Notes: generated by a model not told the origin, from the letters alone. A stretch of DNA of 64,000 bases from Candidatus Omnitrophota bacterium (GCA_029261055.1 JAJDCA010000003.1:3641-67640); one strand, 5' to 3'; numbered from the stretch's first letter, positions 3,360 to 24,494 are shown. Program-made: numbers and translations.

Positions 3360-3378
3360 AAATATTTCCTTTTTATTC

Positions 3379-4450: not shown

Positions 4451-5253
4451 TTTTTACCTTTTGTAAATTTTTCTGTCCTTGTAAATTTTTTATTTGTTTG
4501 TTTGATTAATTCAGCACTAATTGATAAAGCGATTTCTTCCGGGGTTTGGGCTCCAATATCTAGGCCGGCTGGAATGTTGATTTTATTAAGATATTTTGAC
4601 GAGATACCTGATTTTCTTAGTTGATCAAGAAATTTAATGCGTTTTGTTTTGCTGGAAATAACACCAATGTAACTTGCTTTAGATGTAACAACAGTTTTTA
4701 GGCAAGCAAAATCATATTCATTCCCCTGCGTGACAATCATAATATACGTGTTTTGTGTTAGAGGTAACTTTGCTAATTTTTGGGCGTAATTTCCACAAAG
4801 AATTTTGTCAACATGCGGAAATCTATTTTTATTTGCAAAATTACGACGATTATCAAGAACTGTCACGTGATAATTAAGCATTTTACCAATGATTGATAAA
4901 GGTAACGCTATATGGCCGGCTCCACATATAATAAAGTTTTTTTGTCCGGTAAAAGGTTCAATAAAAACTTTTATTTGTCCGCCACAAATGGATTGACCTT
5001 TGTGGCCAAAATAGTCATAAACGACCGTTTTGGGTTTTCCGGATTTAATGGCTTTACGGCATTCTTTTTGTGCGGCAAATTCGTTCCTCCCCCCTCCGAT
5101 TGATCCAAAGAGTGAGCCATCTTCCAAAACAAGCATTTTTGCCCCGGATTTACGTGGTGTGCCTTTAATGGTGGCCTCTATAATGGTTGCTAAGGCATAG
5201 TTTTGTCCTTTTTTACCAGCTTCCAGTGCTTTGGTAAGGAAATCGTAATTCAT
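4447..5253 (-). CDS. xdhC: XdhC/CoxI-family molybdoenzyme maturation (sulfurase/chaperone) protein
   Basis: XdhC N-terminal domain followed by a Rossmann-like domain (FIICGAGHIALPL, GGGRNEF). Confidence 0.75.
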   Translation of the reverse strand: MNYDFLTKALEAGKKGQNYALATIIEATIKGTPRKSGAKMLVLEDGSLFGSIGGGRNEFAAQKECRKAIKSGKPKTVVYDYFGHKGQSICGGQIKVFIEPFTGQKNFIICGAGHIALPLSIIGKMLNYHVTVLDNRRNFANKNRFPHVDKILCGNYAQKLAKLPLTQNTYIMIVTQGNEYDFACLKTVVTSKASYIGVISSKTKRIKFLDQLRKSGISSKYLNKINIPAGLDIGAQTPEEIALSISAELIKQTNKKFTRTEKFTKGKK

Positions 5254-7160: not shown

Positions 7161-7775
7161 ATGATTACATGTATTATTTTATCAGCTGGTAAAAGTAGCC
7201 GTTTTGGATCACCAAAGGCTTTAGCTAAACTCAGTCAATGTACTGTTCTCGAACATTTACAGAAGCAATTGATTCATTGTGCACAGGTGACTGAAATTAT
7301 TATTGTTGTTGGAGCCAAAGCTGACCAAATCAAATCTTTTATATTAAACCATAACAAAGTCAAAGTTGTCTACAATAAAGATTATAATTTTGGGCAGACA
7401 TCTTCCTTTAAAGCTGGTTTAAAATATGCAGCACCAGATACTCAAGGTTTTATGTTGTGGCCTGTAGATTATCCGATCATAAAAAATGAAACAATTGATC
7501 AATTAATTAATGCTTTTTTAGAAAATAAATCGAGTATTCTTATCCCTTCTTTTGATGGTCAAAAAGGCCACCCTCCTATTTTTTCTGCATCATTAAAGAA
7601 TGAATTTTTACGTTTAGATAATGCCGTTGGGCTCAACATGGTGGCACGGTCTTATCCAGAATATATAAGTATTCTTCCTGTCGATGATATGGGTGTAATT
7701 ATGAGTTTTAATTCGGAAGAGGAATTCGAAAAAATAAAGGAAAGAAAATTATTGAAAGACGATGACAGCGGCTGA
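7161..7775 (+). CDS. mocA: MobA/MocA-like molybdenum cofactor nucleotidyltransferase
   Basis: ILSAGKSSRFGSPKAL...GHP matches the MobA-like NTP-transferase N-terminal motif. It lies next to the xanthine-dehydrogenase-family genes. Confidence 0.7.
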   Translation: MITCIILSAGKSSRFGSPKALAKLSQCTVLEHLQKQLIHCAQVTEIIIVVGAKADQIKSFILNHNKVKVVYNKDYNFGQTSSFKAGLKYAAPDTQGFMLWPVDYPIIKNETIDQLINAFLENKSSILIPSFDGQKGHPPIFSASLKNEFLRLDNAVGLNMVARSYPEYISILPVDDMGVIMSFNSEEEFEKIKERKLLKDDDSG

Positions 7776-8168: not shown

Positions 8169-10484
8169 TTATTTTTTATTTATTGAGTGGAGTGCTTTTA
8201 ATACTTTATCCGGTGTAAAGGGGAGTTCTTTTAATCGAATCCCAACAGCGTCTTCAATAGCATTCGCAATGGCCGCTGAAGTTGGTAAAAGTGAAGCCTC
8301 CCCCATGCCCTTGGCTCCAAATGGTCCATGAGGATCATTGGTCTCAATCAAAATACTTTCCATGGGAGGTATTCCGATAGATCGAGGTAATCGGTAATGG
8401 GCAAAATTGGCATTCGCCACATGGCCTTGTTTAAATTGCAAATTTTCCATAAAGGTGTAGCCGATACCCATAGCCAGAGAACCTTCGATTTGTCCTTCCA
8501 CGGATTGGGGATTAATGGCTTTACCAATATCATGAGCATCATATAATTTAAGAATTTTGACTTCACCGGTTTCTTTATTAACTTCTACTTCAGCAATTTG
8601 TGCTTCAAATCCATAACTGCCTGAAACATTCCCCTCCCCTGTTCTGAAATCAATCGGTGTTGTGTTGGGATTATAACTTCCCCGCCCCATGATTTGTTTT
8701 CCATAATTGAAGGAAAAGCATAATTCAACAGCTTTTTCAAAATTCATTAATGTTGTATTATTTTTTGTATTAATTACTTCTTCAGCTTTGATATCCAGGT
8801 CGTCTCGGTTGAGGTTGTGTTCTTTGGCGACAATTTCAAGAATTTGATTTTTGGCATCTCGAGCGGCAAGGATTGTGGCATTGCCTGAAATAAAGGTTAC
8901 GCGGCTCGCAAAGCTTCCGGTATCAAAAGGGGTTGTTTCCGTATCTCCCGATGTGCATTTTATACGATCGTAACTTACACCTAATTCTTGAGCGGCAATT
9001 TGGGAAAGGGCTGTGTTGGAACCCTGCCCTGTGTCTGCGGCTCCGGTAAAGAAATATACGGAGCAATCTTCTTCGACTTTAACAATAGAGCCTGCAGATT
9101 CATGCGATTTATACATCTTAGACCCCATGACATCCGCCGCAATGCCGATACCGATTCCACGACAGAGACTTTTTTGTTGGCCTCTCTTTTTATTCCATTC
9201 AGCTGCAGCCGTAGCTTTTTCAATACATTCACGTAAACCGTTTGAAGAAATTTTCATTTGATTAATAGTTGTCATGTTCGGGGTGGTGATATTTTTGAGG
9301 CGAAATTCTACGGGGTCCATATTAATACCTTTGGCCAGAAGATCCATGTGTGATTCAATCGCAAAACCTGCCTGCACCCCACCGAAGCCGCGCATAGCAC
9401 CGCTTATAGGCGTATTTGTGTATACCCTATACCCTGTGATACGGAAATGTTTGATTTGATAAACCATAAAAATTCGCATAATCGCAGCGGCTAAAACGGT
9501 TGGGCCATAACTGCAGTAGGCGCCCCCGTCAGCAATAACTTCACCAGTTATGGCTACAAGCGTACCGTCTTTTTTAACGCCGGACTTAATTTTGTATATA
9601 ATGCCATGCTTTCGTCGGGAGGCAATAAATTCTTCTTCGCGGCTGTACGTGATTTTGACCGGTAATCCTCCGGATTTTTTGGACAATAGACAGGCAGAAA
9701 AATCCATTGGTAACATTTCTAATTTGCTGCCAAATCCACCGCCGACAGACATTTTAATAACACGAATGTTATTGAGGTCCATTTTAAATGTTTTTGCCAG
9801 TGCTTCTCTGCATTTAAAAGGCGCTTGGCTGGAGGCCCATAAAGTGACCTTATTGGAAAATAATTCCCACTGTCCAACACACACATGCGGCTCCATGCAA
9901 GCATGATGAGCGGCTGGGGTGTAAAATGTATCTTCGCGGACGTAATCAGCTTCTTTTAAAGTTCGGTCAGGGTTTCCAAAATTAACCGGAAGAATAACGG
10001 CAATGTTGTTAAGGGATTCATGAATCTGTGGGGCATTTGGTTTCATGGCCTCTTGAACATCAAAAACAGCCGGTAAAATTTTATATTTAATATCAATTAA
10101 TTTAAGAGCCTCAAGGGCTGTTTCTTCATCAACGGCCGCTACGGCTCCAATTTCATCTCCAATGTAACGAACCTTTTCTGACTCCAAGGCCATTTGATCT
10201 ATGGTATGAGGAAAAAAGTGTTCGTTAGATCCAAATTTAATTTTGTCGGTGTCTTTGGCCGTAATAACCGCACGAACACCCGGTAAGGCCTCGGCTTTGG
10301 ATGTATCAATGCTTAGGATTTTGGCATGAGGATGCGGTGAGCGGATCATTTTGCCAACCAGCATATTGGCAAATCCAATATCGTAAACGTATTTTGCTTG
10401 GCCGGTAACCATTCCCTTTCCATCAATTCTAGGAACGCTTTTTCCAACAGGATCAGTATATTTTTTATCAATAGACTTCGGCAT
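8169..10484 (-). CDS. xanthine dehydrogenase/aldehyde oxidoreductase family molybdopterin-binding large subunit
   Basis: 771 aa, with a/b hammerhead and MoCo-binding domains (GGGFGSK, GQIEGS motifs). The CO-dehydrogenase AYRCSFR motif is absent. Confidence 0.9.
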   Translation of the reverse strand: MPKSIDKKYTDPVGKSVPRIDGKGMVTGQAKYVYDIGFANMLVGKMIRSPHPHAKILSIDTSKAEALPGVRAVITAKDTDKIKFGSNEHFFPHTIDQMALESEKVRYIGDEIGAVAAVDEETALEALKLIDIKYKILPAVFDVQEAMKPNAPQIHESLNNIAVILPVNFGNPDRTLKEADYVREDTFYTPAAHHACMEPHVCVGQWELFSNKVTLWASSQAPFKCREALAKTFKMDLNNIRVIKMSVGGGFGSKLEMLPMDFSACLLSKKSGGLPVKITYSREEEFIASRRKHGIIYKIKSGVKKDGTLVAITGEVIADGGAYCSYGPTVLAAAIMRIFMVYQIKHFRITGYRVYTNTPISGAMRGFGGVQAGFAIESHMDLLAKGINMDPVEFRLKNITTPNMTTINQMKISSNGLRECIEKATAAAEWNKKRGQQKSLCRGIGIGIAADVMGSKMYKSHESAGSIVKVEEDCSVYFFTGAADTGQGSNTALSQIAAQELGVSYDRIKCTSGDTETTPFDTGSFASRVTFISGNATILAARDAKNQILEIVAKEHNLNRDDLDIKAEEVINTKNNTTLMNFEKAVELCFSFNYGKQIMGRGSYNPNTTPIDFRTGEGNVSGSYGFEAQIAEVEVNKETGEVKILKLYDAHDIGKAINPQSVEGQIEGSLAMGIGYTFMENLQFKQGHVANANFAHYRLPRSIGIPPMESILIETNDPHGPFGAKGMGEASLLPTSAAIANAIEDAVGIRLKELPFTPDKVLKALHSINKK

Positions 10485-10963
10485 TAGTTAATTTTTTTGT
10501 TTTTTTCCTTCATTATTTTTCCTGCTTCTTGAATAGCTTCAAAAATTTTTGGATAACCAGCACATCGACAGAGATTGCCGTCTAAGGCATATTCAATTTC
10601 TTTTTGAGTCGGTTCAGGGTTTTGATCCAATAAAGCTTTAGAAGACATGATCATGCCTGGCATACAGAACCCACATTGAACAGCTCCTTGATCTAAATAA
10701 GCTTGTTGAATCGGATGAAGCTGATTTCCGTCAGCCAAACCTTCAATTGTCGTCACTTCTCCCCCATCTAATGAAGCCGCCAGTGTAATACATGCAAGGA
10801 TGGCTTTACCTTTAACCGTAACGGTACAGGCCCCGCACTCTGCTTCTTCGCACGCGGTTTTTGTCCCGGTCAGGCCTAAGTGATCTCTCAAGACTTCCAA
10901 GAGAGTTTCATGGCCTTTGAGGTCCAATTGATATTTTTGTGTATTGATGGTTAATGTAATCAT
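10484..10963 (-). CDS. [2Fe-2S]-binding small subunit of the xanthine-dehydrogenase-family enzyme
   Basis: CGACTV...C and QCGFCMPG...CRCAGY ferredoxin motifs. Confidence 0.9.
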   Translation of the reverse strand: MITLTINTQKYQLDLKGHETLLEVLRDHLGLTGTKTACEEAECGACTVTVKGKAILACITLAASLDGGEVTTIEGLADGNQLHPIQQAYLDQGAVQCGFCMPGMIMSSKALLDQNPEPTQKEIEYALDGNLCRCAGYPKIFEAIQEAGKIMKEKNKKIN

Positions 10964-11808
10964 TTTTTTTCTATAATTTTTTCAATGGCTTTTCGGATAC
11001 TTACCCGAAACATATGCTGTTTATATTCATCGCTGCGCGTATCATAAATGTCATCGGTGATATGGTCAAGAGCCGATTGGGGTGTTTCCTTTGAAGCCGT
11101 AGTGTTATTTAAGAAGTTTTCTAAAATATGATCGCGTTGAGCAAAGCCTATGCCATTATTTACCGCAACAATAGTATTATTAAATTGCCCACTATTAAAT
11201 TGTGTTTTTAAACATACGGTCAATAAAGGAATATCTACATGAATAGTTTTTTTAACGCGTTGATAAGATAAAGAAATGTTTTTGTCATGGGGGATAGAGA
11301 TTTGAAAAAGAATTTTACGTGTTTTTGCCCCTTTTTGAAAAAAATCTTCGGCGGGTATAATTTCTTCTTTGCCATCTTCTCCCATAAAATGAAGTTTAGC
11401 CTCTAGAGCCGTCATAATAGCCGGCATTTCGGTCCATGTATAACGACACGTTAAATTTCCTCCGATGGTGGCCATATTACGAATAGGTGTTGTCGAAATA
11501 TCTTGGGCCGCTATTTTGAGAATGGCTAGATTATCTGTTAGGTCTGGTGAATTTAAAAGTTCTGCGATCGTGGTCATGGATTTGATGACACATTGATTCT
11601 TATCTATATGGATTCCTTTTAAATTATCAATTTTGTTAAGGTTGATGATATGGCGAGGTGTTTTGTTACCTTTGCGTTTTAAAAGTTTGAGCGTATTAAA
11701 TAAAAATGTCCCTCCAGCCTGCAGCTTAACATGGTCAAGCTCTGCATAAAATTTGGCAGCCTCTGTGAGGGTTTTTGGTGAATGGAGTGTAAATGGATTT
11801 AAAAGCAT
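10960..11808 (-). CDS. FAD-binding medium subunit of the xanthine-dehydrogenase-family enzyme
   Basis: FAD-binding-5 domain (LQAGGTFLF, ATIGGNL). Confidence 0.85.
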   Translation of the reverse strand: MLLNPFTLHSPKTLTEAAKFYAELDHVKLQAGGTFLFNTLKLLKRKGNKTPRHIINLNKIDNLKGIHIDKNQCVIKSMTTIAELLNSPDLTDNLAILKIAAQDISTTPIRNMATIGGNLTCRYTWTEMPAIMTALEAKLHFMGEDGKEEIIPAEDFFQKGAKTRKILFQISIPHDKNISLSYQRVKKTIHVDIPLLTVCLKTQFNSGQFNNTIVAVNNGIGFAQRDHILENFLNNTTASKETPQSALDHITDDIYDTRSDEYKQHMFRVSIRKAIEKIIEKK

Positions 11809-13403: not shown

Positions 13404-14612
13404 TTATTTGGAAATTATCTGTTTATTTTCAACAGGTGGTTGATTTTTTGGAATTTGAAATCGAAATATAGATCCTCCTTTAGGATTAGGTTCGGCCCAT
13501 ATTGTTCCATGATGATCAAAGATGATATTTTTTGCTATGGAGAGGCCTAATCCTGTGCCACCAGCACCTGTTTTAGATTTGCTACTTTGGACAAAGGCAT
13601 CAAAAATAATTTCATATTCAGTTTCAGGTATTCCTATCCCCTCATCAATTATAGAAACGATAAAATATTGATTATCTTGCGCGATTTCAACAAAGATTTT
13701 CTTTTTATTTTGTGAGAATTTAATAGCATTTGATAATAAGTTTTGCATAACTTGTATAATTTTATCTATGTCAATTGCGGCTGTGTCATTGAAATTTGGT
13801 TCTGTGAATTGAATAATTATTTCTTTTTCTTTGCATAATGATTTTGATTCAGTAATAATTTTCTTTATAGCAAGTGAAAGTTGAGTTTCTTGGAATTTAT
13901 ACACTATTTTTCCTGTCTCTAGTTTTGATAAATCTAATAATTCGTTAAGCAAGTCCAGTAAGTTTTCACCGCAGAGCTTAATTTCAGAAAAATATTTTTT
14001 TAATTTCTTTTTATCTATCCATTCGATACGATCCAAACCAAACTTAGCGAAACTTAAAATGCCGTGCAATGGAGTTCGTAGTTCATGGCTTATATTAGCC
14101 AGGAATTCTGATTTGGCTTGGTTGGCTTTTTCAGCGCGGATTTTTTCTTGCATAACTTGATGTGTGCGCTTTAAAACTTCTTTTTCGAATTGACTTTTGT
14201 ACTCTAGAAGTTCTTTTTTTCGTTCGTTTTCGATTTGTTGAGTTTTTTTATTTAATTCAACATATCGAATTGCTTTTTTAATAGTGTATTCAAGGATAAT
14301 GGGATCAAAGGGTTTAATCACAAAATCCAAAGCGCCTTTTTTTAATGCTTCTATGGCTAATTGTACGGTGCCTTCTGCTGTGATCATAATACATTTAAAA
14401 TCAAGGTTTATTTTATTTATGGCCTCAAGGGTCATTAATCCATCCATCTCTGGCATTCGTTGGTCAAGCAAAATAAGATCTGGAGATAAGTCTTTGAGGA
14501 TTTGAAGCGCTTCCATTCCGCTTTCAGCTTCAGAAACTTCATATTCATCAAGAGTGTATTTTATGAGGTGGCGATTATTTTTATCATCATCGACAATGAG
14601 TATTTTTTTCAT
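13404..14612 (-). CDS. hybrid response regulator-histidine kinase (N-terminal receiver + HisKA + HATPase_c)
   Basis: MKKILIVDDD...DLILLDQRMPEMDG receiver. H-box SHELRTPLHGI. G-box GTGLGLSIAK. Confidence 0.85.
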   Translation of the reverse strand: MKKILIVDDDKNNRHLIKYTLDEYEVSEAESGMEALQILKDLSPDLILLDQRMPEMDGLMTLEAINKINLDFKCIMITAEGTVQLAIEALKKGALDFVIKPFDPIILEYTIKKAIRYVELNKKTQQIENERKKELLEYKSQFEKEVLKRTHQVMQEKIRAEKANQAKSEFLANISHELRTPLHGILSFAKFGLDRIEWIDKKKLKKYFSEIKLCGENLLDLLNELLDLSKLETGKIVYKFQETQLSLAIKKIITESKSLCKEKEIIIQFTEPNFNDTAAIDIDKIIQVMQNLLSNAIKFSQNKKKIFVEIAQDNQYFIVSIIDEGIGIPETEYEIIFDAFVQSSKSKTGAGGTGLGLSIAKNIIFDHHGTIWAEPNPKGGSIFRFQIPKNQPPVENKQIISK

Positions 14613-14663
14613 AAAGATATTTATACGCGATGTTAGAAAATAAGAAATAGGGTGGGGTTGTTT

Positions 14664-15062
14664 TTAGCTATCTTTTTTCTTCTTTGAAGAGATTATTTTT
14701 AGAAGTTTTTCAATGTTTTTTTGTAAGGGTAATAGATTTTTTTCTTTGCGGGCTATAACCGCATTAGCGCCGTTTGTTTTGAATTGTGCAATTGTGTTTT
14801 CATCTGTAAAGAGTCCAATTTGAACTATGACTTTGGTGGAAGGTCTTAAGGAGGTAATTTTTTGACAGATTATTTGACTATCAGTATCAGGAAGCATAGC
14901 GCTGAGAATAACCAAGTCAGGTTTTTCTTGTTGAATCTTTTTTATGGATTCTATACCTGATCGAATTAAAGTAATTTTTTTAAATGTTAAGCCTTTAAGA
15001 AATGCAATCAATTTGTCGGCATAAACCGGATGAGCATCAATGATTAAAATTTTATCTTGCAT
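14664..15062 (-). CDS. degenerate (pseudo-)receiver domain protein lacking the phospho-acceptor Asp
   Basis: The receiver fold is recognisable, but IIDAH replaces the DD pocket and DLVILS replaces DxxxxD. Confidence 0.55.
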   Translation of the reverse strand: MQDKILIIDAHPVYADKLIAFLKGLTFKKITLIRSGIESIKKIQQEKPDLVILSAMLPDTDSQIICQKITSLRPSTKVIVQIGLFTDENTIAQFKTNGANAVIARKEKNLLPLQKNIEKLLKIISSKKKKDS

Positions 15063-15807
15063 TAGTCCTCCTCTTTTTTTTATTTTTGAGGGTTTTTTCC
15101 TTGGCGATATGGTTTCTGTATTCCATCGGGGTCTTTTTTTCTATACGTTTAAAAATACGCATAAAAGATTCGGCATTTTGATAGCCGAGTTGTAGGGATA
15201 TTTCATTAATATTGTATGAAGAATTTTTCAATAATGATTTAGCAATATCCATTTTAATCTTCAGTTTATATTCACGGAAGGTTGACCCATGTTTATCGTT
15301 AAACATACGACTTATATACTTGGGGCTAAGGCATAATTCATTAGCAATGTCTTTCAAAGAGACTTGGGATTGATTTCTTTCAATAAATCGTTTAATACGT
15401 GTTATTTTATTATCTGAATTCACGGGTTCGTTACGAAGATATTGATTATTTTTTAAAATTGTGTGAATTTTATGTTTAAGCTCTTCAAGCTCGAAAGGTT
15501 TCTCTAGAAAATCACTAGCTTGATATCTAAGAGCTTGAACAGCAATGTCCATCGAGCCATAAGCTGTAAGCATGATCACGGCAATATTTTTATTTATTTT
15601 TTTAACTTCATGTAATGCGTTAACACCATTCATTCCCGGCATCATAACATCCATTAGAATTAAATTTATTTCATGCGGCTTTCGGAGATAATTTAAGGCA
15701 TCTTGAGCGTTAGAAAAATCAATAATTTCATATTCTGCAAGGCCGACTTTAATGCTTCGAATGACACGAGAGTCATCATCAACAACCATAATTTTTTCTG
15801 AGAGCAT
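15052..15807 (-). CDS. response regulator with AraC-type HTH output domain
   Basis: Receiver (MVVDDD...LILMDVMMPGMNG) plus an AraC HTH C-terminus. The start was moved to MLSEK to limit overlap with the upstream kinase. Confidence 0.8.
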   Translation of the reverse strand: MLSEKIMVVDDDSRVIRSIKVGLAEYEIIDFSNAQDALNYLRKPHEINLILMDVMMPGMNGVNALHEVKKINKNIAVIMLTAYGSMDIAVQALRYQASDFLEKPFELEELKHKIHTILKNNQYLRNEPVNSDNKITRIKRFIERNQSQVSLKDIANELCLSPKYISRMFNDKHGSTFREYKLKIKMDIAKSLLKNSSYNINEISLQLGYQNAESFMRIFKRIEKKTPMEYRNHIAKEKTLKNKKKRRTNAR

Positions 15808-17587
15808 AAGAAGTCTCCTTTTCAGTAGTTGGAAGTTTTGTGATAAAAGAAATTGTGTTTTTGTTTTGGCAATCCATTCTAATTGTTCCACCGTGTTGTT
15901 TGATGATTTCTTTACATATTGAAAGGCCGAGGCCTAAACCATTTTGTTTTGTAGTGAAAAAAGGTTCAAAGCATTTTTGCAAGGATTCTGGATTAATTTT
16001 CTGAACTGCATTGGTAATTTTGATTTGGATACAGTCAGTTTTTTGTGATTTTGATTTTTGAGTGGTTTTTGCAGATAAATAAATAGACTTACCTTCATCT
16101 GCTGCTTCGATGGCATTAGTTATCAGGTTAATGAGGACTTGTTTTAATTTGCTCATATTACCGTGAATCTCTGGAAGATTATCTTTTATATTTATGTCAA
16201 AATGTAATTTTTTTTGTTTAAACCGTATTTTTGTTAATGAAATAATGTCATTAATTAAAGTATTGACGTTGAGTTTTTCCATAGGAAATTGTTGAGCTTT
16301 TGTATAATCACTTATATTTTGTAACATGGTTTTCCAGGAGTTTAGTTCTTTGGGGATTACTTGGGAAAAATCAGCAATAAATGCTTTTTCTTTATGTCGT
16401 TGCGGAAGCAAATGAATGTAAGTTTTAACAAGTACGAGTGAATTCTTCAGTTCGTGAGCAATAGCTGTGGTTGCTTTTCCAACAATGGATAACCTTTCCA
16501 TTTGTCGAGCTTTACGTAATTCGTCAGCCATTTTATTAAACGTGTTGAGAAATTTTCCAATTTCATCTTTACGTTGAATCGGGAATGTTTGGTTAAATTG
16601 TCCACGGGCTAATCGTTGGGTGCGTTCAATCACTTGATTCATGGGGCGGCTTATAAGGCGTGCTAACATAAGACTCAATATAATAGCAGCGAGGATACTT
16701 AAAAGAATAATGATCCATGATTGAGCCTGCATGATTTTGGAAAAGGCATAAGCTTCTTTAAGTGGTTGAAATATAACTAAACCCCAATTTATTTTTGGAA
16801 TTGGGGCGTAAGCAACCAACCAACGTTTTTTATGGTTATCTTTCATTTCACGACTTCCGGATAATCCACGAGAAAGTTCATCTGTGATGGCTGGATAAGG
16901 AGGTTTTGTATTTGTAAGGATTAGTTTTTTATCAGGATGGGCAATGAGTTGTCCCTTGTGGCCAATTAAATATACGCCGCAAGATTTACCGCAGTTAATA
17001 TTGTCAACAACATCCCACACTCTACGTAAGTTAACATCGGCGATAAGAACTCCCTTAATTTTTCCAAGATTTTTTATTGGTACGCCCAAAGTCATTAGTG
17101 GCGTACGATTTTTTGAAATCCGAACATCGGAAACGTAAATTTTTCCTTGGATTGTGTCTAAAAATTCAGGGTCCTCACTGCGATCTGTCAGAGGTGTACC
17201 TAGCTCGGAGGAGCAGATTTCGTGTCCATTTTGATCAACGGAGGCAATGCGGCCAAAGATAGGATATTTTAACGCAAGTTCTACAATGGTTGTTTCTTGT
17301 CGCCAAGGATCTGCGTGTAATGTTCCAAGAATAGCGGCTATTGTTTCCAATGCTTTACGAGGCGATTCAATAAATTCTTTTAATTCTCCTGTGGCGTGAA
17401 TGGCTATTTCTTTATGATCATTTAATATAGATGTTTTTAATGCTTTTTGACTTGTTTGAATAAGGATAAAACCTAAGGTAATTAAGGGGATAATTACAAG
17501 AAGTAGCAACAGAACAAAAATTTGTTGCCAAATACGTTTGGGGGTAATTTTTTGATGAAAAGATTGAATAAAATATGAAAATGACAT
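15779..17587 (-). CDS. membrane sensor histidine kinase with periplasmic Cache-type domain, HAMP, HisKA and HATPase_c
   Basis: Two TM helices flank a ~250-aa extracytoplasmic domain. H-box AHELKNSL. G-box GLGLGLSICK. Confidence 0.85.
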   Translation of the reverse strand: MSFSYFIQSFHQKITPKRIWQQIFVLLLLLVIIPLITLGFILIQTSQKALKTSILNDHKEIAIHATGELKEFIESPRKALETIAAILGTLHADPWRQETTIVELALKYPIFGRIASVDQNGHEICSSELGTPLTDRSEDPEFLDTIQGKIYVSDVRISKNRTPLMTLGVPIKNLGKIKGVLIADVNLRRVWDVVDNINCGKSCGVYLIGHKGQLIAHPDKKLILTNTKPPYPAITDELSRGLSGSREMKDNHKKRWLVAYAPIPKINWGLVIFQPLKEAYAFSKIMQAQSWIIILLSILAAIILSLMLARLISRPMNQVIERTQRLARGQFNQTFPIQRKDEIGKFLNTFNKMADELRKARQMERLSIVGKATTAIAHELKNSLVLVKTYIHLLPQRHKEKAFIADFSQVIPKELNSWKTMLQNISDYTKAQQFPMEKLNVNTLINDIISLTKIRFKQKKLHFDINIKDNLPEIHGNMSKLKQVLINLITNAIEAADEGKSIYLSAKTTQKSKSQKTDCIQIKITNAVQKINPESLQKCFEPFFTTKQNGLGLGLSICKEIIKQHGGTIRMDCQNKNTISFITKLPTTEKETSYALRKNYGC

Positions 17588-17598
17588 GTAACATTATA

Positions 17599-18948
17599 TC
17601 AAATTTTTGAAGCTATTAAAGTTTGATATTCTTTCTTAATAAATTCAGGTACCATTTTATCAAGATATGGCTTTTTACACCCAGCGGTTTGGAAATTTTT
17701 TTCTTCCAAAAAAGACATCATGCGGCATCCACCGCTACACATTGGGAGATAAGTGCAATCTTGCGGGCATTGTTTCCAGACGTCAAGGTTTATAAATTCA
17801 TGATGTTTTTTATTGAAGTGTTCATCTTGGATGTTGCCAACCGCAAATTCCGGATGCCCTAGCATGGAATTACATTTGTAAATGTGTCCTTTTTGATCAA
17901 TCGTTACCCCCCCCTGTTCACTTGTTAATGGGCAGGCGGTGATGGACATACCATTTTTTGTCGGAAGACCGCGGCTTTCCATAAGGTTTTGGATTTTTTT
18001 ATTATCTTTTAGGAGTTGTTTATTTTCAAAATTACAGTTACAGGCTGTATTTTGAATTTGTTCTGCCTGGCCAACAGGTCCAAGGGTGGCATGAAGTGGT
18101 GAAAATATAAAACGGCCTAATTTGTGTAGAATTTCTATTTCTTCAAAATAATTAAGTAGTCGTTCGATCGGAGCGATATTCCCTTTAGTATAACTGGTAG
18201 AAATACCGATTTTAACCATATCACTACAATTGGTGATATTTTGAATGATTTTATCAAAGCTGCCTCGGCCATTACGTAAAGGGCGGTTACGATCATGATC
18301 TTGGCCAACACCATCTACGGAAATACGTACCTGGTCCAGTCCTAATGTAAGATAATGGGCAATACACTCTGGAGTCATCAAATAACCATTAGTTTGCAAC
18401 ATAAATTTGAATCGTATGCCTTGTTTTTTGCACCAGATTTGCATTTCACTGGCAATTTGTTCAAGAATAAATTTATTTAACAGAGGTTCCCCCCCGTAAA
18501 AAATTAGATAGAGTTGTTTATAATTAAATTTCTTAATTTGTTTTTTTAGCCATGTCATGACATGGTCTGCCGTTTTGGCATCCATTTTAACATTTGCGCG
18601 AGATGTTTCTTCAAAGCAGTAAGTACATTTTAGATTGCAGGCATAGGTTGTGAGGATCGTTACGGCAAAAGAGTCTGTTTTTGATTCATGTTTTAGTTGA
18701 TTTAAAAAAAACTTTAGGTTCTGATGGTCTTCTTTTTCATTTTTTACAATCATCCCCATTTTGTGTAAGGCTGTGAGATCTTTGGAATGGCGTTCGCGTA
18801 ATGTAGGTAAAATTTTTTCAGAATTTTCGATAATTTTACGTAATTCGTGATTAATTTTGACCATCCCTTGTGTACGAATATTATAAATAAGATGATCTTG
18901 ATCGGTTGGATAATTATCGATAATAAGTGTGTTGTTAGAAAATTGCAT
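17599..18948 (-). CDS. radical SAM / SPASM-domain peptide-modifying enzyme with ~100-aa N-terminal extension (possible RRE)
   Basis: CNLKCTYC (CxxxCxxC) occurs at ~aa 104. The C-terminal Cys-rich SPASM region is CPQDCTYLPMCSGGCR. Confidence 0.9.
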   Translation of the reverse strand: MQFSNNTLIIDNYPTDQDHLIYNIRTQGMVKINHELRKIIENSEKILPTLRERHSKDLTALHKMGMIVKNEKEDHQNLKFFLNQLKHESKTDSFAVTILTTYACNLKCTYCFEETSRANVKMDAKTADHVMTWLKKQIKKFNYKQLYLIFYGGEPLLNKFILEQIASEMQIWCKKQGIRFKFMLQTNGYLMTPECIAHYLTLGLDQVRISVDGVGQDHDRNRPLRNGRGSFDKIIQNITNCSDMVKIGISTSYTKGNIAPIERLLNYFEEIEILHKLGRFIFSPLHATLGPVGQAEQIQNTACNCNFENKQLLKDNKKIQNLMESRGLPTKNGMSITACPLTSEQGGVTIDQKGHIYKCNSMLGHPEFAVGNIQDEHFNKKHHEFINLDVWKQCPQDCTYLPMCSGGCRMMSFLEEKNFQTAGCKKPYLDKMVPEFIKKEYQTLIASKI

Positions 18949-19046
18949 AAATTATGACTCAATATGGTTGCTAATTTTATGATGGTAAGTGGTGAATGCT
19001 ATGATAGCAATTACCACTTACCATCGTATAATGTATTTATAACGTT

Positions 19047-19154
19047 TTATTCAACCTCTTCAGGGGTTTGCATTGTTTCTGTCCCTGGTGGCCAACAACA
19101 ACTTAGCGCGGACATTTCTTTGAGGTCAACTGCCCCTTTTTTGATAATTTCCAT
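19047..19154 (-). CDS. 35-aa candidate RiPP precursor peptide MEIIKKGAVDLKEMSALSCCWPPGTETMQTPEEVE (not in supplied ORF track)
   Basis: A perfect ribosome-binding site AAGGAGGTG sits 6 nt before the ATG. The ORF lies 30 bp downstream of the binding-protein gene and 98 bp upstream of the rSAM/SPASM gene on the same strand. Confidence 0.5.
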   Translation of the reverse strand: MEIIKKGAVDLKEMSALSCCWPPGTETMQTPEEVE

Positions 19155-19184
19155 TAATATCACCTCCTTAATGTGTTATGAGTT

Positions 19185-20783
19185 TTATTTATGGAGAATT
19201 TGCCAGTTTTTTAATGAATGTACGGGCATGGACCAACAAAAGAAATCATCTGTATTTTTTAATTTCGCGGATACCGCATGAAAAGTTTGTGGAAAGAAAA
19301 AGAAGCAAGCTGGTTGATCCAAATAGAGTAATTTATGGATTTCTTGGTAAATCTTTGAGCGTTCATTTTTATTTTGGATTATCCTGCCAGATTCAAAAAG
19401 CATATCAATTTTGTTATTTTTATAAGGCCATAATTGTCCAAATTGGCTAGATGAGGAATACCAACTACCTAATGCATCATAAGCATCATGACCTAAACCT
19501 TCAAAAAAACGTAACCATGCTTGTGGTTTATGTGTGGTTAAAAAATTTTTGGTTAAATCCGAGTTATTTTTATAGGGAATGATTTGTACTTTCATTCCAA
19601 TTTCAGCTAATTGTTGACGAATAATAATGGCCGCTTTTTTGTAAAAATCATTACGGATATCTACGAGGAGGCGGAGTTCCAGCTTTTTTCTTCCTTTTTC
19701 AAAGACGCCATCTCCGTCTATATCTTTCCATCCTAAATGCATAAGGTTCATGCGTGCTCGTAAGGGATTGTAAGGCAGTGATCGGACATCAGAATTAAAC
19801 CCCATCGACTTGGGATGAAATGGCCCGGTGCTTTCTAGTCCTTCAACGGAAGTTGCTTGCATGAGTTGTTTTCGGTCTATGCTCATAGCAATCGCGTTAC
19901 GAATATCAGGGTTAAAGAAGGTAGAATCTTGGGTATTGTAGACCATGGCAAAATACATTTCCCAAGGAATGGTATAAGTCTTGAATGTTGGATCTTTGGC
20001 AACAATTTTATAATCTTCATGATTGAGATATAAGACAAGATCAACTTCTTGCTGCATTAAAGCGATCCAGAGTTTTTTGGCATTAGGATATGTTTTTATA
20101 ATAATCTGGTCTAAATAAGGGCGATTTTCAAAATATTTTTGATTGGCTTCAAGGGTTATTTGATTTGTTTTTTTATCCCATTTTTTAAATTTGAATGGGC
20201 CTGTCCCAATGGGAAAGTAGTTGAAGGATGCTGTGGGCAGTGCTTTATCACTCAGGAGATGTTTAGGAGCAATTTCTCTGGTGAGCTTATGCAAAATAGC
20301 CGGAAACGCCTTTTTGAGTTTTATTTTTACTGTGTAATTATCAATGATTTTCCATTGTTCGATCAATTCTGTATTGGTACGTCGAGGTGATTGGTTTTTT
20401 GAATCGGCAATCATGTCATAAGTAAATTTTATATCTTTTGTCGTTAATTCTACACCATCGTGAAATTTGACACCTTCATGCAAATAAAAAATATAAACCA
20501 ATCCGTCTTCGGAGATGTCCCAGGATTTGGCTAACCCAGGTACGACTTTTCCCTGGCTATTAATACGGACAAGAGAATCAAAGATGAGGGCCATTAACGG
20601 TGCTGAAACGCTATGTGAGGTCAGTATGGGATTAATAATGGTCGGAGGATTACTTGTTCCCCACACTAAGGTACCTCCATATTTTTTTTGTCTGATTTGG
20701 GCTAAGTCTGCTAATGCCGTGGAAGGATATGGGGCTAACATATTTGTCATAAAGATAAAGGTGATAAAAATTTTTAAAAACAT
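19185..20783 (-). CDS. ABC-type periplasmic substrate-binding protein, family 5 (oligopeptide/dipeptide/nickel type)
   Basis: SBP_bac_5 signature (KYGGTLVWG...NPIL...LV...GLAKSWDIS.DG..Y.F.L..GVKFHDG) with a signal peptide. No permease or ATPase genes are adjacent. Confidence 0.85.
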   Translation of the reverse strand: MFLKIFITFIFMTNMLAPYPSTALADLAQIRQKKYGGTLVWGTSNPPTIINPILTSHSVSAPLMALIFDSLVRINSQGKVVPGLAKSWDISEDGLVYIFYLHEGVKFHDGVELTTKDIKFTYDMIADSKNQSPRRTNTELIEQWKIIDNYTVKIKLKKAFPAILHKLTREIAPKHLLSDKALPTASFNYFPIGTGPFKFKKWDKKTNQITLEANQKYFENRPYLDQIIIKTYPNAKKLWIALMQQEVDLVLYLNHEDYKIVAKDPTFKTYTIPWEMYFAMVYNTQDSTFFNPDIRNAIAMSIDRKQLMQATSVEGLESTGPFHPKSMGFNSDVRSLPYNPLRARMNLMHLGWKDIDGDGVFEKGRKKLELRLLVDIRNDFYKKAAIIIRQQLAEIGMKVQIIPYKNNSDLTKNFLTTHKPQAWLRFFEGLGHDAYDALGSWYSSSSQFGQLWPYKNNKIDMLFESGRIIQNKNERSKIYQEIHKLLYLDQPACFFFFPQTFHAVSAKLKNTDDFFCWSMPVHSLKNWQILHK

Positions 20784-20882
20784 TGTGAGGTCTTGGCATT
20801 GACCTGAGTGATCAATACCATACATTACGAAGGGAATAAGAAAATAGGTTTATGTGTGTTTTAGCTGACTTTTTTCTACTTT

Positions 20883-22754
20883 TTAAAATTTAAGCGAAAA
20901 TCCCCCTTCAAAATAACGCTCTGGTAGAGGAAATGTTTTGTCAGACCAATATTTACTGTTGGTAATATTGTGGATGTTAACAAAGATTTCACCTTTGATA
21001 TTTTTGTAACGAGGTTGGTAATTCTGGGTTAATTTGGCATCAAAAATTGGTTTACGGTCATTGGGTTCATCGCTGGCATCAGAATCCCAACGATCGTAGT
21101 AACCATAGAGATTAAGTCCAAAGCCTTTTTTATTTTTGTAGTTTGCTCCCCATCGAAAGCTTTGCCGAGCTGTGCCGTTGCCTCTTACGACTTCATCTGT
21201 GGCTTTGTCCACCACATGATTAAATGCACTGCTGGTAAAAAAATGCCACTCTTCAGAGAGGGTATAATCTAAGGTTAAATCTACGCTTTGACGACGAAAT
21301 TTATCAAAGTTTTGACTTTGAAATAAAGAATCTTCATTGAATACAATTTTAATAGCATCTCTTATTTGGGCCAATGAATAATTTAGGTTAAGGTTTAATG
21401 CTGATAACGGGTTTGTCTCCAGGCCAATTTCATACACCATAGCTTTTTCAGCCTTTAACTCTGGATTCGGAGCGACCAAAAAAGATGGATCGTCATTAAA
21501 TAACCATAATAAAGGTGGGGCTTGGAAGGCTCGGGTAGCCTTGAAGCGAATCGAGGTCTCTCTCTCATCTTTAAACTGATAAATGGCGCCAAGGCTTGGG
21601 CTTGTTTGATCTCCAAAACGGTTGTTATTATCATAACGAATGCCTGGAATAATATCTAAATTACCTAAATTTAGTGTATAATTAGCAAATGGGGCTTCCA
21701 TGTGAATATGTTTTGGTTGAGGAATATTACGGCTAGATTTGATTTTTTGCCATTCAAAATCACTACCGACAACAAGTTTGTCTTTTTCTCGAAAAGTAAA
21801 GCGGGCTACGCCACTTAACCCATTGTAGATGTTTGAGTTGTTTGTAAGGAGCCCCCCAACAGTCTCTGTTTTTATATTTTGATTGTTATATTTTCCGGAG
21901 ATATTAAGTTGAAACTTAGGTTTATCAATTTCAAAAGACATTTTTCCGTATCGGGAATAATAAGGTTGTAGTGTGGTTGATCCTGAGGGTTTGACCCCAT
22001 CACGGACTTCAGCTCCACTATATCCGAAAGAAGCCGTTAGTTTGGCTTGGTCTCCAACAGGATAATTGAGTTTGGAAAAATATTTTTGCTCTTCTACATC
22101 GGAAATAGATCGAGTGCCAGAAGTATTCATAAAACTTCCTGAAACAAAATAACCAGCCTTACCTATTCGTCCTGCGAGATCAAGGCTATTTTTGGTTGTG
22201 CCAAATTCAGCAAACGATGAGGTGAAGTTGCCGGTGGGGATAGTATTTTCCCCTACCTCTTTTGTGATTACGTTGATGACCCCCCCTAGACTGGATCCCC
22301 AGGCACTTGAAGAAGCTCCTTTTATAACTTCAATTTGTTTGATGTTCTCTATTGGGATTTTTGTGGGGTTAGCCTGGCCTGAGAGTTGGGTGTTAAATGG
22401 GATTCCATCGACCATCACCAAGACTTGCCGTGATCGAGATCCTTGGATTGTGAGAGATGTGCTTTGACCAAATTTATTACGTACAGCAATATTGACTCCT
22501 GGAATAAGGCTTAAGACTTCCCCTAAATCGCGTCCAGGTAATTTTTCAATATCTTTTTCAGTATAAATAATGACATTTTCTGCAGCACGGTCTGCCTCAC
22601 TTTGTATACGTGTGGCGCTCACGATAATGGGCGATGTCTCTGCAGAGTGTGCGTAAGTCGAAGTAAAAATTAAGAAAGTAGATATACAGATGGTAGGCAA
22701 TAAATGAGAAAAATTAAATTTTATGTAATAGTTTTGGGGATGTTTGGGGAACAT
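20883..22754 (-). CDS. TonB-dependent outer-membrane receptor
   Basis: Signal peptide, plug domain (IVSATR...ENVIIYT..DIEKLPGRDLGEVL), a 22-strand barrel region and the C-terminal aromatic ...GGFSLKF. Confidence 0.85.
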   Translation of the reverse strand: MFPKHPQNYYIKFNFSHLLPTICISTFLIFTSTYAHSAETSPIIVSATRIQSEADRAAENVIIYTEKDIEKLPGRDLGEVLSLIPGVNIAVRNKFGQSTSLTIQGSRSRQVLVMVDGIPFNTQLSGQANPTKIPIENIKQIEVIKGASSSAWGSSLGGVINVITKEVGENTIPTGNFTSSFAEFGTTKNSLDLAGRIGKAGYFVSGSFMNTSGTRSISDVEEQKYFSKLNYPVGDQAKLTASFGYSGAEVRDGVKPSGSTTLQPYYSRYGKMSFEIDKPKFQLNISGKYNNQNIKTETVGGLLTNNSNIYNGLSGVARFTFREKDKLVVGSDFEWQKIKSSRNIPQPKHIHMEAPFANYTLNLGNLDIIPGIRYDNNNRFGDQTSPSLGAIYQFKDERETSIRFKATRAFQAPPLLWLFNDDPSFLVAPNPELKAEKAMVYEIGLETNPLSALNLNLNYSLAQIRDAIKIVFNEDSLFQSQNFDKFRRQSVDLTLDYTLSEEWHFFTSSAFNHVVDKATDEVVRGNGTARQSFRWGANYKNKKGFGLNLYGYYDRWDSDASDEPNDRKPIFDAKLTQNYQPRYKNIKGEIFVNIHNITNSKYWSDKTFPLPERYFEGGFSLKF

Positions 22755-22814
22755 TACGATCGGTACTATATCGTACTTTTTTTGATAGATCAAGGATAAT
22801 ACATAGGTTGTGTA

Positions 22815-22854
22815 TAAAAAAGGGGCCTTGATTGTTGAAAAATTTTAGGCCCCT
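22815..22854 (-). terminator. rho-independent terminator (minus strand) AGGGGCC-loop-GGCCCCT + T6
   Basis: GC stem followed by a T-run on the minus strand, downstream of the 75-aa gene. Confidence 0.5.
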
Positions 22855-22871
22855 CCCGTGGCGGGTAATTT

Positions 22872-23099
22872 TTATAACATATCTTCAATTAATGTTATTT
22901 CGGTTTTAATGGTGGGTTTTTGTCCATGGGGAATATAAGCTTTTACCTCAGCTTTTGATTTAAAAATTTCCAAAGCTTCTTTTCTTCGATTTTCTTTTAA
23001 TAAAGCAATGACTTTTTCTTTGAGACTTTTTTTGTTTAATGTCGCGATAACTCTTAAACTTTGATAATTTTCATTATTTAATACGAGTAATGCGTTCAT
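22872..23099 (-). CDS. hypothetical 75-aa protein
   Basis: An ORF with a terminator downstream. I recognise no family. Confidence 0.35.
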   Translation of the reverse strand: MNALLVLNNENYQSLRVIATLNKKSLKEKVIALLKENRRKEALEIFKSKAEVKAYIPHGQKPTIKTEITLIEDML

Positions 23100-23468
23100 T
23101 TTTAGTTTCTCCTTTGTAATATGGCGTGAAGAATAGTATCTTCAGGTATTTTGCTTCTTGCTGCGCGCATGTAATTTTTAGTTAATTAAAGCATAACATA
23201 TGGTGTGTCATAAATCAAGTGTATCTAAGTTATTTTGACATATTTTGTATTACTTATAACATTATGTAATTAAATAGTTTATGATAATTATGAAAGTAAA
23301 TAGTTATTATATTTTAAAATAATGTCATAATTATATGATTATATCATTGTTATGACATATTATGACGGTGTTATCAACTACAGAGATAATACTTAAAAAT
23401 GTAAGGACTCCTCTAAAAAATTATATTTTCTATATGTCAAAATATTAGTTTTTTTTTGTTTTTATGGC

Positions 23469-23503
23469 TTGACATGTATTCTTAGCTAGTATATAAATTA
23501 ATT
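23469..23503 (+). promoter_or_regulatory. sigma70-like promoter TTGACA-N17-TATAAA for the XRE/cupin regulator
   Basis: Consensus -35 and near-consensus -10 sit about 40 bp upstream of the 23542 start. Confidence 0.4.
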
Positions 23504-23541
23504 CTCTATATGTAATATATTAATTAAATGAGGAGAATTCC

Positions 23542-24111
23542 GTGAATCATTATGAAAAAATAAAAAAAATTCGTAAAGAGCAAAAAATGACGATAAAAGA
23601 GGTTTATCAGCGTGGTAAGTCTATTTGGGGGCAACAAAATGCACTCTCGATTAGTACGATTAATCGAATTGAAGCGGGTAAACGGCATAAATTTTCTTCT
23701 TTACACAAGCTTTGTTTTATTTTAGGTGTTGAGCTTAAGGAATTATTTAAAGATACTGAAGTTTCAGAATATTTAGTCATACCCAGAAAAGAAAGAACAT
23801 TAGGATACTCTTATAATGAAAAAGCTTTTTCTAATATTGTGAATAATCCGAATCAGAGTTTTTTGGCTCAAGAATTTACTTTAGCGCCTTCCGGTAGGAC
23901 ATCTTCTGATAATGCGACTTTAGCTGGAGAGAAATCTGAAAAATGGGTTTATGTTGTTAGAGGTGAGCTAGTGTGTGTTATTGAAGCAGAGAAGTTTTTA
24001 TTAAAAGGCCGGGATACTTTGTCATTTGATAGCACTAAGGTTCATTATTTCAAAAATGCGTCTAATAAAAAATGTATCTTTATTGTTGTTGAGAATCCGG
24101 GGCGTTATTGA
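23542..24111 (+). CDS. XRE-family HTH + cupin domain transcriptional regulator
   Basis: N-terminal HTH_3 (IKKIRKEQKMTIKEV...STINRIEAG). C-terminal cupin beta-barrel. Confidence 0.75.
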   Translation: MNHYEKIKKIRKEQKMTIKEVYQRGKSIWGQQNALSISTINRIEAGKRHKFSSLHKLCFILGVELKELFKDTEVSEYLVIPRKERTLGYSYNEKAFSNIVNNPNQSFLAQEFTLAPSGRTSSDNATLAGEKSEKWVYVVRGELVCVIEAEKFLLKGRDTLSFDSTKVHYFKNASNKKCIFIVVENPGRY

Positions 24112-24122
24112 GGTTTAAAAAA

Positions 24123-24494
24123 TCATTGTTCAGAAATTTCTTTGATTTTTTGTGTAGCCACGATGCGTAGATCATCAAAACTAAACGGTTTTGTCATGTA
24201 GTCATCAGCCCCTAATGCCGTCGCTTTCTGGCGCATCGCTTCATCCCCTTTGGCTGTTACCATAATCACCATAACTTTAGGATCAAGTTCTTTAAACTCT
24301 TTCAGAAGGTCCAAACCATCAACATCAGGCATAAGAATATCCAGAAAAATTATTTTTGGTTTTTCTTTTTTGAATACACTCAACGCCTTTTTCCCTGTCG
24401 TTGCCGTAAATACAGTAAAACCTATATACGAAAATGTTTGACTAATACTTTCACATACCCCGGCTTCATCATCTACAGCTAAAATTTTTATCAT
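24123..24494 (-). CDS. single-domain response regulator (CheY-like receiver)
   Basis: MIKILAVDDE...IIFLDILMPDVDG...TAKG...KPF. Confidence 0.85.
   Translation of the reverse strand: MIKILAVDDEAGVCESISQTFSYIGFTVFTATTGKKALSVFKKEKPKIIFLDILMPDVDGLDLLKEFKELDPKVMVIMVTAKGDEAMRQKATALGADDYMTKPFSFDDLRIVATQKIKEISEQ

Follow-up and report, generated by a model that had tools for sequence, protein, structure and literature searches.

Peptide autoinducers are commonly regarded as a hallmark of monoderm bacteria, and the outer membrane of diderms excludes peptides of such size. In SusC systems of Bacteroides with hybrid two-component proteins of AraC-type output, as well as in PfeS/PfeR-PfeA of Pseudomonas, a ligand imported by a receptor is read in the periplasm and the receptor operon is induced. 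Binding proteins can act as co-sensors, e.g., LuxP with LuxQ and the family-5 autoinducer binder AibA with TlpB. In methanobactin operons, a chelator derived from a peptide is encoded together with a TonB-dependent transporter and binding proteins of the periplasm (PMC3621798), and the Itf cluster of Bacteroides thetaiotaomicron features the radical S-adenosylmethionine (SAM) enzyme ItfD, the YcaO protein ItfB, the ABC/C39 protein ItfE and the TonB-dependent ItfF (PMC11002830). A further system, geopeptide (TIGR04229 together with TIGR04280), is computationally defined; no paper on this family or on the cassette described here was found in the literature. The cassette lies at positions 13404-22793 of a 64,000-nucleotide stretch of DNA, termed the window in the following, from a Candidatus Omnitrophota bacterium (GCA_029261055.1, JAJDCA010000003.1:3641-67640) and comprises eight minus-strand genes around a short precursor peptide and its radical-SAM/SPASM maturase. 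We tentatively read it, with a little less than even confidence, as a self-contained loop making, exporting, re-importing and sensing a radical-SAM-modified peptide, most likely an auto-inducing cell-cell signal. This reading is built on sequence and synteny, and we infer export, re-import, binding and autoinduction from the gene content.

All eight genes were found, along with a predicted promoter and two hairpins, at the following positions, given in transcription order.

22815-22854, minus strand: terminator-like hairpin, read directly from the sequence
22765-22793, minus strand: sigma-70-like promoter, predicted by a consensus scan
20883-22793, minus strand: TonB-dependent receptor, likely ATG at 22754 (Pfam Plug and barrel)
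19185-20825, minus strand: family-5 solute-binding protein, signal-peptide start M15 at 20783 (Pfam SBP_bac_5)
19047-19154, minus strand: precursor peptide of 35 amino acids, MEIIKKGAVDLKEMSALSCCWPPGTETMQTPEEVE (sequence and Shine-Dalgarno)
18981-19025, minus strand: hairpin between peptide stop and maturase start (folding compared with shuffles)
17599-18948, minus strand: radical-SAM/SPASM maturase (Pfam Radical_SAM)
15779-17587, minus strand: sensor kinase, dCache_1-HAMP-HisKA-HATPase (Pfam)
15052-15807, minus strand: regulator with receiver (REC) and HTH_18/AraC domains, the mechanical open reading frame (ORF) extending to a GTG at 15891 (Pfam)
14664-15062, minus strand: pseudo-receiver (alignment to CheY)
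13404-14612, minus strand: soluble REC-HisKA-HATPase kinase (Pfam)

The genes are spaced by +57, +30, +98, +11, an overlap, -11 and +51 nt. A first-pass annotation of this DNA had described eight genes on one strand with gaps of 10-100 bp or overlaps; the gaps amount to 11-98 nt besides the small overlaps, and the architecture as well as every gene identity given there was correct. Nevertheless, co-directionality alone is weak evidence for a functional unit, because unrelated housekeeping genes share the strand on both sides. Downstream, the same strand continues to 8169 with nadC, an unknown gene and a xanthine-dehydrogenase-like cluster, and the riboflavin-synthesis and nusB genes upstream of the cassette are encoded on the minus strand, too.

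The surroundings of related maturase genes were obtained by exact-protein look-ups, by a genome scan and by searching metagenomes for a family-specific motif. The window proteins were mapped onto the relatives by tblastn, so that the tallies rest on matches to the window's own proteins. This comprised 38 non-redundant relatives with a maturase identity of 37-60%, the denominators counting only loci with enough flank; the relatives are mostly Omnitrophota, and the sample is biased to what the pattern scans could find. A single-protein scan of genome contigs gave no match, and the alignment-based genome scan contributed 8-9 informative loci among the matches listed, the rest being generic SPASM enzymes. 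The family-5 binding protein is encoded directly upstream of the maturase in 22 of 23 loci, and the receptor upstream of it in 21 of 22. Downstream, the dCache kinase was present in all 21 loci and the REC-AraC regulator in 19 of 21. Between the maturase and the kinase genes, 21 of 27 relatives feature an ATP-binding cassette (ABC) exporter (ABC_membrane and ABC_tran) directly behind the maturase, and a pseudo-receiver was found in 6/21 loci. Other genes vary by locus, and signalling genes (REC, PAS kinases, GGDEF, CheB/R) recur in large numbers in the flanks of the relatives. The unit is a six-gene core of receptor, family-5 binding protein, peptide, maturase, dCache kinase and REC-AraC regulator, with the exporter in most lineages and the pseudo-receiver in some. 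As this core recurs in 38 relatives with different flanks, the association goes far beyond chance, and the conservation counts together with the absence of the receptor from 71 other SPASM loci rule out a chance adjacency. A scattering of the genes in relatives, named in the first-pass annotation as one finding that would refute its reading, was not observed; the core was kept across this whole range of maturase identity amid unrelated flanks.

The same annotation had pointed to the missing exporter. The window sub-lineage is indeed without it, and the gap is explained by the exporter in the relatives, which also supports a secreted product. Likewise, the combination of genes, then considered unfamiliar, is not unique to this genome and belongs to a widespread family related to an uncharacterised NCBIfam family. 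A variant without exporter would also fit a reading in which no peptide loop exists, the locus being an uptake and sensing unit for oligopeptides or cofactors, similar to SusC with a hybrid kinase, and the peptide and maturase being merely embedded in it, either unrelated or cell-internal. TonB import, periplasmic sensing and AraC-type output represent the logic of polysaccharide-utilisation loci, and two relatives on short contigs have a receptor by the maturase and no recognisable peptide gene (L099, 1340-2120, with an inverted receptor beside the maturase; L110, 1500-1730, with a receptor abutting it). However, wherever both are present, peptide and maturase always lie between binding-protein and kinase genes with tiny gaps, the exporter is part of most related cassettes (21/27), and the receptor is linked to all geopeptide-type loci despite their non-homologous parts and to 0/71 other SPASM loci. 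We therefore regard an uptake unit without a peptide loop as very improbable.

The receptor features a signal peptide followed by the TonB box PIIVSATR, which is kept in receptor orthologues, a plug and a barrel of BtuB size (Pfam Plug, 6.6e-22, and OMP_b-brl_3). Its NCBIfam matches, all far under cut-off, are led by BtuB, heme and siderophore receptors, and its closest solved structures are Cir, BtuB, YncD, PfeA and PqqU. No N-terminal signalling domain was detected in the receptor by Pfam and no ECF (extracytoplasmic function) sigma or FecR genes occur in the window or the annotated loci, so the features of a FecA/MbnT-type transducer are lacking. With the window receptor as query, a homologue was found adjoining the maturase in the geopeptide-type loci L014, L015, L016 and L018 (4/4), and none across the 1.25 Mb of 71 loci surrounding radical-SAM/SPASM genes of other kinds; the link to the receptor is a specific trait of this maturase clade. 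In one relative (L006, 5825-6007), a 60-amino-acid QSregVF_b protein, a putative quorum-sensing-regulated virulence factor, is encoded directly upstream of the receptor gene.

The binding protein carries the Sec signal peptide MFLKIFITFIFMTNMLAPYPSTALA and matches SBP_bac_5 in Pfam (4.8e-69). In NCBIfam, NikA, Opp4A and CntA were matched, all below cut-off. The oligopeptide binder AppA is the closest solved structure (1xoc, 9e-55), and AibA, which binds autoinducer-2 (AI-2), is also among the structural relatives (6ofq). Neither a permease nor an ATPase of an ABC importer was found among the window genes examined or within 10 kb in six annotated relatives. The family-5 protein is an orphan and, with no ABC permease or ATPase nearby, a role in co-sensing is more plausible for it than one in transport.

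Both proteins lead to a different explanation, according to which the product is a metal carrier. In sulfidic habitats devoid of oxygen, a secreted Cys-Cys peptide would bind a thiophilic metal in short supply (Ni, Co, Cu, Zn, Mo or W) and return in its loaded form via the receptor to the binding protein, with the kinase and regulator raising production upon loaded carrier in the periplasm, following the logic of methanobactin or PfeS/PfeR-PfeA. Receptor, family-5 protein, exporter and biosynthesis genes form a classical metallophore layout, and the carriers of the cassette were found in groundwater, sediment and other anoxic-habitat lineages. Moreover, the best curated families of the binding protein include the staphylopine binder CntA besides NikA and Opp4A, the receptor is closest to BtuB, heme and siderophore receptors, and two adjacent cysteines are the only invariant residues of the peptide core. 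However, characterised members of the maturase clade consume Cys thiols in thioethers, and metal binding would be weakened as such links use up the thiols. No inner-membrane importer, reductase or metal-responsive regulator accompanies the genes, and the window contains no Fur box with up to three mismatches. Geopeptide loci have PF04392 instead of family 5, placed beside kinase genes and with no metal-uptake gene there; PF04392 is not known to be a metallophore-binding family. Additionally, the flanks of the relatives are rich in signalling rather than metal-related genes. Taken together, we consider a metal carrier unlikely, though a serious competitor of the signalling loop.

The chemistry of the product can be approached from its maturase (Pfam Radical_SAM, 3e-19). 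The cysteines of the CX3CX2C motif (C104/C108/C111) are invariant in 20 homologues, as are the SPASM cysteines C339, C359, C394, C398, C404 and C408, with C303 and C424 being nearly so; the Pfam SPASM model gave no match to the window maturase at E<0.01. In an AlphaFold2 model (pLDDT, the predicted local distance difference test, of 90), residues 7-63, ahead of the core, form three strands and three helices, and this N-terminal domain is predicted to be of the RRE-like leader-binding type. CteB is the best fold match over the full length (E 4e-22, alignment of 471 columns), followed by anSME, SuiB, TigE and ChlB, and ranks first among PDB sequences as well. Among NCBIfam families, TIGR04280 scores best with 269.1 bits against a cut-off of 400, ahead of CefB, TIGR04463, PapB, Clo7bot, CcpM and SCIFF, and no model of NCBIfam release 20 takes in the window maturase or peptide above threshold. 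As both score below the curated cut-offs, the window system is a sister clade of geopeptide and not a member. Judged by these homologies, thioether cross-linking from the two cysteines is the most likely chemistry. The analogy to streptide drawn in the first-pass annotation is therefore only a loose one, with the enzyme being nearest to the Cys-targeting thioether maturases (geopeptide, CefB, PapB, CteB) and not to the Lys-Trp cross-linker. At E<1e-20, 542 homologues of the maturase were found, the named ones mostly from Candidatus Omnitrophota.

The precursor gene stands behind the full Shine-Dalgarno sequence AAGGAGGTG, 98 nt upstream of the maturase gene, and a full Shine-Dalgarno precedes the peptide gene in every locus. 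Orthologous peptides were recovered from about 30 loci and contain the two adjacent cysteines (CC) without exception. They share a conserved N-terminal leader, M-E-[IV]-I-x-x-G-x-x-D, and a core in which an aromatic residue and Pro come after the invariant CC, CC[WFY]PxG[TS] being a frequent form. The tail is variable, being acidic in group 1 (the window type, ...PEE) and short and basic in group 2 (...GTExxRxR). Compared with the TIGR04229 geopeptide model of 22 positions, the window peptide reaches 12.7 bits (E 0.085) and its relatives at most 16.8 bits, the cut-off being 30. Directly after the peptide stop, the hairpin at 18981-19025 has a minimum free energy of -31 kcal/mol (z -5.1), and 0/200 shuffles fold as well. 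Nearly all Omnitrophota-type loci feature a long, strong hairpin at this point, kept in position and strength and not in sequence. It is a probable attenuator or mRNA stabiliser that would set a high ratio of peptide to enzyme, and the combination of Shine-Dalgarno and hairpin is, we infer, what would be expected where a precursor has to outnumber its enzyme.

A modified peptide with its own exporter and two-component system could, in turn, be an auto-induced antimicrobial or effector directed at competitors or hosts, controlled similarly to nisin by NisRK, with receptor and binding protein for self-monitoring only. Radical-SAM thioether peptides include antibiotics, as known for sactipeptides, and the arrangement of exporter, kinase and regulator resembles that of lantibiotic clusters. 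Host-dependent or episymbiotic lifestyles have been reported for Omnitrophota (preprint 10.64898/2026.06.07.730766). Nevertheless, no immunity gene or second self-protection ABC system is present in any annotated locus, a high-affinity importer for a cell's own toxin would be hazardous, and, whereas bacteriocins evolve fast, this core is short and has been conserved between phyla. This makes an antimicrobial role improbable.

Loci of the geopeptide family proper allow the signalling loop to be examined over a larger distance. Bona fide TIGR04280 maturases (535-570 bits) occur in Thermodesulfovibrionales (L014), Nitrospiraceae (L015) and Desulfobacteraceae (L016). In each of these loci, the genes of a CC-peptide and the maturase, in this order, directly follow that of a TonB-dependent receptor, and an orphan PF04392 binding protein lies beside kinase genes with no transporter genes adjoining. 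The kinases are of the types sCache_4-HAMP-HisKA (L014) and HAMP-HisKA_3 (L016), and the regulators of the sigma-54 (L014, L015) and LuxR types (L016). A gammaproteobacterial fragment (L018) consists of a receptor C-terminus, a CC-peptide and a maturase. The precursor of L014 (9600-9900) deviates in that about 65 residues, Lys/Ala-rich and histone-H1-like, form its leader ahead of ...KIACCRPSGIGYGVK; the remaining peptides have 30-40 residues in total. That the set recurs although its binding protein, kinase and regulator are non-homologous would be difficult to account for if these parts did not work with the peptide. It is possible, though we hold it with doubt, that the cassette represents a new kind of peptide signalling in diderms, in which a receptor-gated autoinducer is presented by an orphan binding protein to a Cache kinase, and that this is an old modular design. 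Such a design would span Omnitrophota, Planctomycetota-like bacteria, Nitrospirota, Desulfobacterota and some Gammaproteobacteria, with receptor, CC-peptide and maturase held constant and the rest swapped.

On the sensory side, the kinase is composed of a transmembrane segment, a periplasmic dCache_1 domain, a second transmembrane segment, HAMP, HisKA and HATPase (Pfam), and its H-box reads AHELKN. The regulator combines Response_reg with HTH_18 and HTH_AraC (Pfam) and retains the phospho-acceptor Asp in the alignment to CheY. With H-box, ATPase and Asp, both proteins form a classical two-component pair. The pseudo-receiver differs from CheY by D57 to Ser, D13 to Ala and T87 to Gln; these substitutions are kept in orthologues of six other distinct loci (40-57% identity), and the protein is an optional accessory. 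In other loci, the soluble REC-kinase at 13404-14612 is matched only weakly (26-34%) or at displaced positions, a single 51% match being located in L089, where 2.3 kb separate it from the AraC regulator gene upstream, and different receiver-containing signalling proteins occupy its position elsewhere. It is a lineage-specific add-on and not a conserved member. Thus, of the eight genes grouped together in the first-pass annotation, the six of the core stood, the pseudo-receiver turned out to be optional and the last kinase dropped out.

The upstream limit of the cassette is the hairpin at 22815-22854, formed by AGGGGCCT, an 18-nt loop and AGGCCCCT, followed by a T-run. It lies 3' of an unrelated ORF of 75 amino acids and is missing from the list of the hairpin scan, as its loop exceeds the limit of that scan. 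The consensus match at 22765-22793 reads TTGATC-17 nt-TATAGT and ends 10 nt 5' of the receptor ATG; from this predicted position, a leaderless or very short-leader receptor mRNA is implied. A -10-like hexamer is also found 6-10 nt 5' of the receptor ATG in L001, L006, L008, L113 and L118, and the receptor genes have no Shine-Dalgarno, in contrast to the perfect one of the peptide gene. This pattern suggests that leaderless or near-leaderless receptor mRNAs are conserved across several loci. A riboswitch such as the cobalamin type, looked for in front of the BtuB-like receptor, was not detected, no Rfam family reaching threshold anywhere in the window; in a relaxed Rfam scan of 18800-23700, the sole match was a miRNA on a hairpin, which was judged to be chance.

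According to the signalling loop, the cassette would operate as follows. One promoter before the receptor gene would drive the operon, with the peptide gene having the strongest ribosome-binding site and the hairpin limiting read-through into the enzyme and regulator genes. The maturase would bind the leader via its RRE-like domain and modify the Cys-Cys/aromatic/Pro site, the product probably being a thioether-linked, compact bicyclic core by homology with CteB-, PapB- and CefB-type enzymes. Subsequently, the ABC exporter, which in this genome would be encoded elsewhere, would secrete the peptide. The dedicated TonB-dependent receptor is proposed as the only route of return to the periplasm, as the product would be too large for porins. 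There, the orphan family-5 protein would capture the peptide and the dCache domain of the kinase would read it, free or complexed. Phosphorylation of the REC-AraC regulator would then activate the operon and other targets, and in this lineage the pseudo-receiver and the extra REC-kinase may tune the phosphorelay or add branches to it.

Several findings weigh against this loop. The gene set also fits a metal-carrier peptide, with the nickel and metallophore binders NikA and CntA among the nearest curated families of the binding protein. The 64-kb window contains no homologue of the ABC exporter of the relatives, and the cassette no protease. One relative (L089) has maturase, exporter and kinase, and neither receptor, binding protein nor peptide upstream, an aroA-like gene being in place upstream of the maturase (8500-10330). 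By inspection, no common regulator-binding motif was found in the 260 bp upstream of 14 receptor genes; these regions share -10-like boxes near the ATG and a loosely recurring ATGTAT only, and the latter is unconvincing as a regulator site in AT-rich DNA. Furthermore, the net charge of the peptide tail is not anticorrelated with that of the binding protein, dCache domain or receptor over 22-24 loci. With the maturase, the tail charge gave a rho of -0.45 (p 0.014, statistics ignoring phylogeny).

The surroundings of the cassette show further features. Upstream, the 75-amino-acid ORF (22872-23099) has a Shine-Dalgarno and a terminator of its own and gave no match in Pfam. In the AT-rich spacer of 440 bp preceding this ORF, TATTTTGACATAT forms an inverted pair, perfect over 13 nt (23231-23243 and 23432-23444); the spacer faces a divergent XRE-HTH/cupin regulator (23542-24111). 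The pair is possibly an operator and is not conserved in other loci; lying beyond the terminator and beside a different regulator, it was not assigned to the cassette. Many short AT-rich repeats occur at 22700-23600, this pair being the best of them. Stand-alone receivers are encoded at 2979-3395, 3379-3732, 4073-4450 and 24123-24494, an unusually high density besides the three of the cassette. A three-subunit molybdoenzyme of the xanthine-dehydrogenase family, together with XdhC and MobA-like genes, is located at 4447-5253, 7161-7775 and 8169-11808, with nadC and the gene of an unknown secreted protein of 226 amino acids between it and the cassette; this cluster is not conserved beside the cassette in other loci. 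Some CAAX/CPBP proteases are linked to bacteriocin processing or immunity, and an Rce1-like membrane protease of this group is encoded at 50282-51586, 28 kb from the cassette. On the minus strand, a 1742-amino-acid ORF (44041-49269) contains a complete phosphoglycerate kinase domain at residues 880-1305, its flanks of about 880 and 440 residues having no Pfam match, and a further ORF (53226-63365) codes for 3379 amino acids with PKD domains. The latter agrees with a report of very long proteins in Omnitrophota (preprint 10.64898/2026.06.07.730766).

If correct, the proposed loop would show how diderms could use peptide signals or, in its metal-carrier form, peptide carriers produced without oxygen-dependent chemistry. 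It would provide a function for the uncharacterised geopeptide family and a simple, portable module of receptor, binding protein and kinase with a genetically encoded ligand. Moreover, it would provide a first starting point for studying communication or metal acquisition in the Omnitrophota, whose members are known almost exclusively through metagenomes. The Cys-Cys-aromatic-Pro site may, in addition, involve undescribed radical-SAM chemistry.

Compared with known systems, the maturase resembles CteB (SCIFF), PapB (ranthipeptide) and CefB in its RRE, radical-SAM core, SPASM domain with two auxiliary clusters and Cys substrate. However, the window enzyme scores far under the cut-offs of these families, and its substrate has two adjacent cysteines instead of many spaced ones; the established systems are mostly from Firmicutes and feature no receptor, binding protein or kinase. 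Streptide (StrA/StrB/StrC, shp/rgg) shares the short peptide, the SPASM enzyme and the signalling circuit, and SuiB was a lower-ranked fold match. It differs in the Lys-Trp C-C link formed by StrB on KxxxW, a motif absent from the window peptide, and in being sensed by cytoplasmic Rgg after Opp import in a monoderm, whereas a periplasmic kinase in a diderm is proposed here. Methanobactin (MbnA/B/C, MbnM, MbnT, MbnI/R) has in common its own importer, a permease-less binding protein, an exporter and a loop triggered by the product (PMC3621798). Nevertheless, the MbnB (DUF692) and MbnC domains were not found in the window cassette by Pfam, and methanobactin signals via an N-terminal extension of its receptor and an ECF sigma factor, while the window receptor is without extension and stands with a two-component system. 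In the literature searched, no published radical-SAM peptide cluster other than Itf came with a TonB-dependent transporter (PMC11002830). Itf is distinguished by a Trp-Ile C-C link plus amidine, a YcaO partner and a C39 peptidase exporter, with no binding protein or two-component system reported.

The SusC, Pfe, LuxPQ and AibA systems resemble the proposed loop in the import by a dedicated receptor, in the periplasmic reading by a kinase, sometimes via a binding protein, and in the AraC output. Their ligands are glycans, siderophores and AI-2 rather than a self-encoded peptide, and the parts are not orthologous. Closest of all is geopeptide. Compared with it, the window has family 5 instead of PF04392, dCache_1 instead of sCache_4 and AraC instead of sigma-54 or LuxR, and the ABC exporter is an addition of most Omnitrophota-type loci. 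Yet geopeptide is the best-scoring family for both the window enzyme and the peptide, and the short peptide follows the same plan of a hydrophobic/basic leader and an invariant CC. In addition, both have a receptor directly upstream and an orphan binding protein, a Cache-type kinase and a response regulator nearby. The invariant CC and the adjoining receptor, which are features seen in members of the family and no published definition, are both found in the window. The cassette thus appears to be a radical-SAM/SPASM peptide system related to geopeptide, with a system-level architecture undescribed so far.

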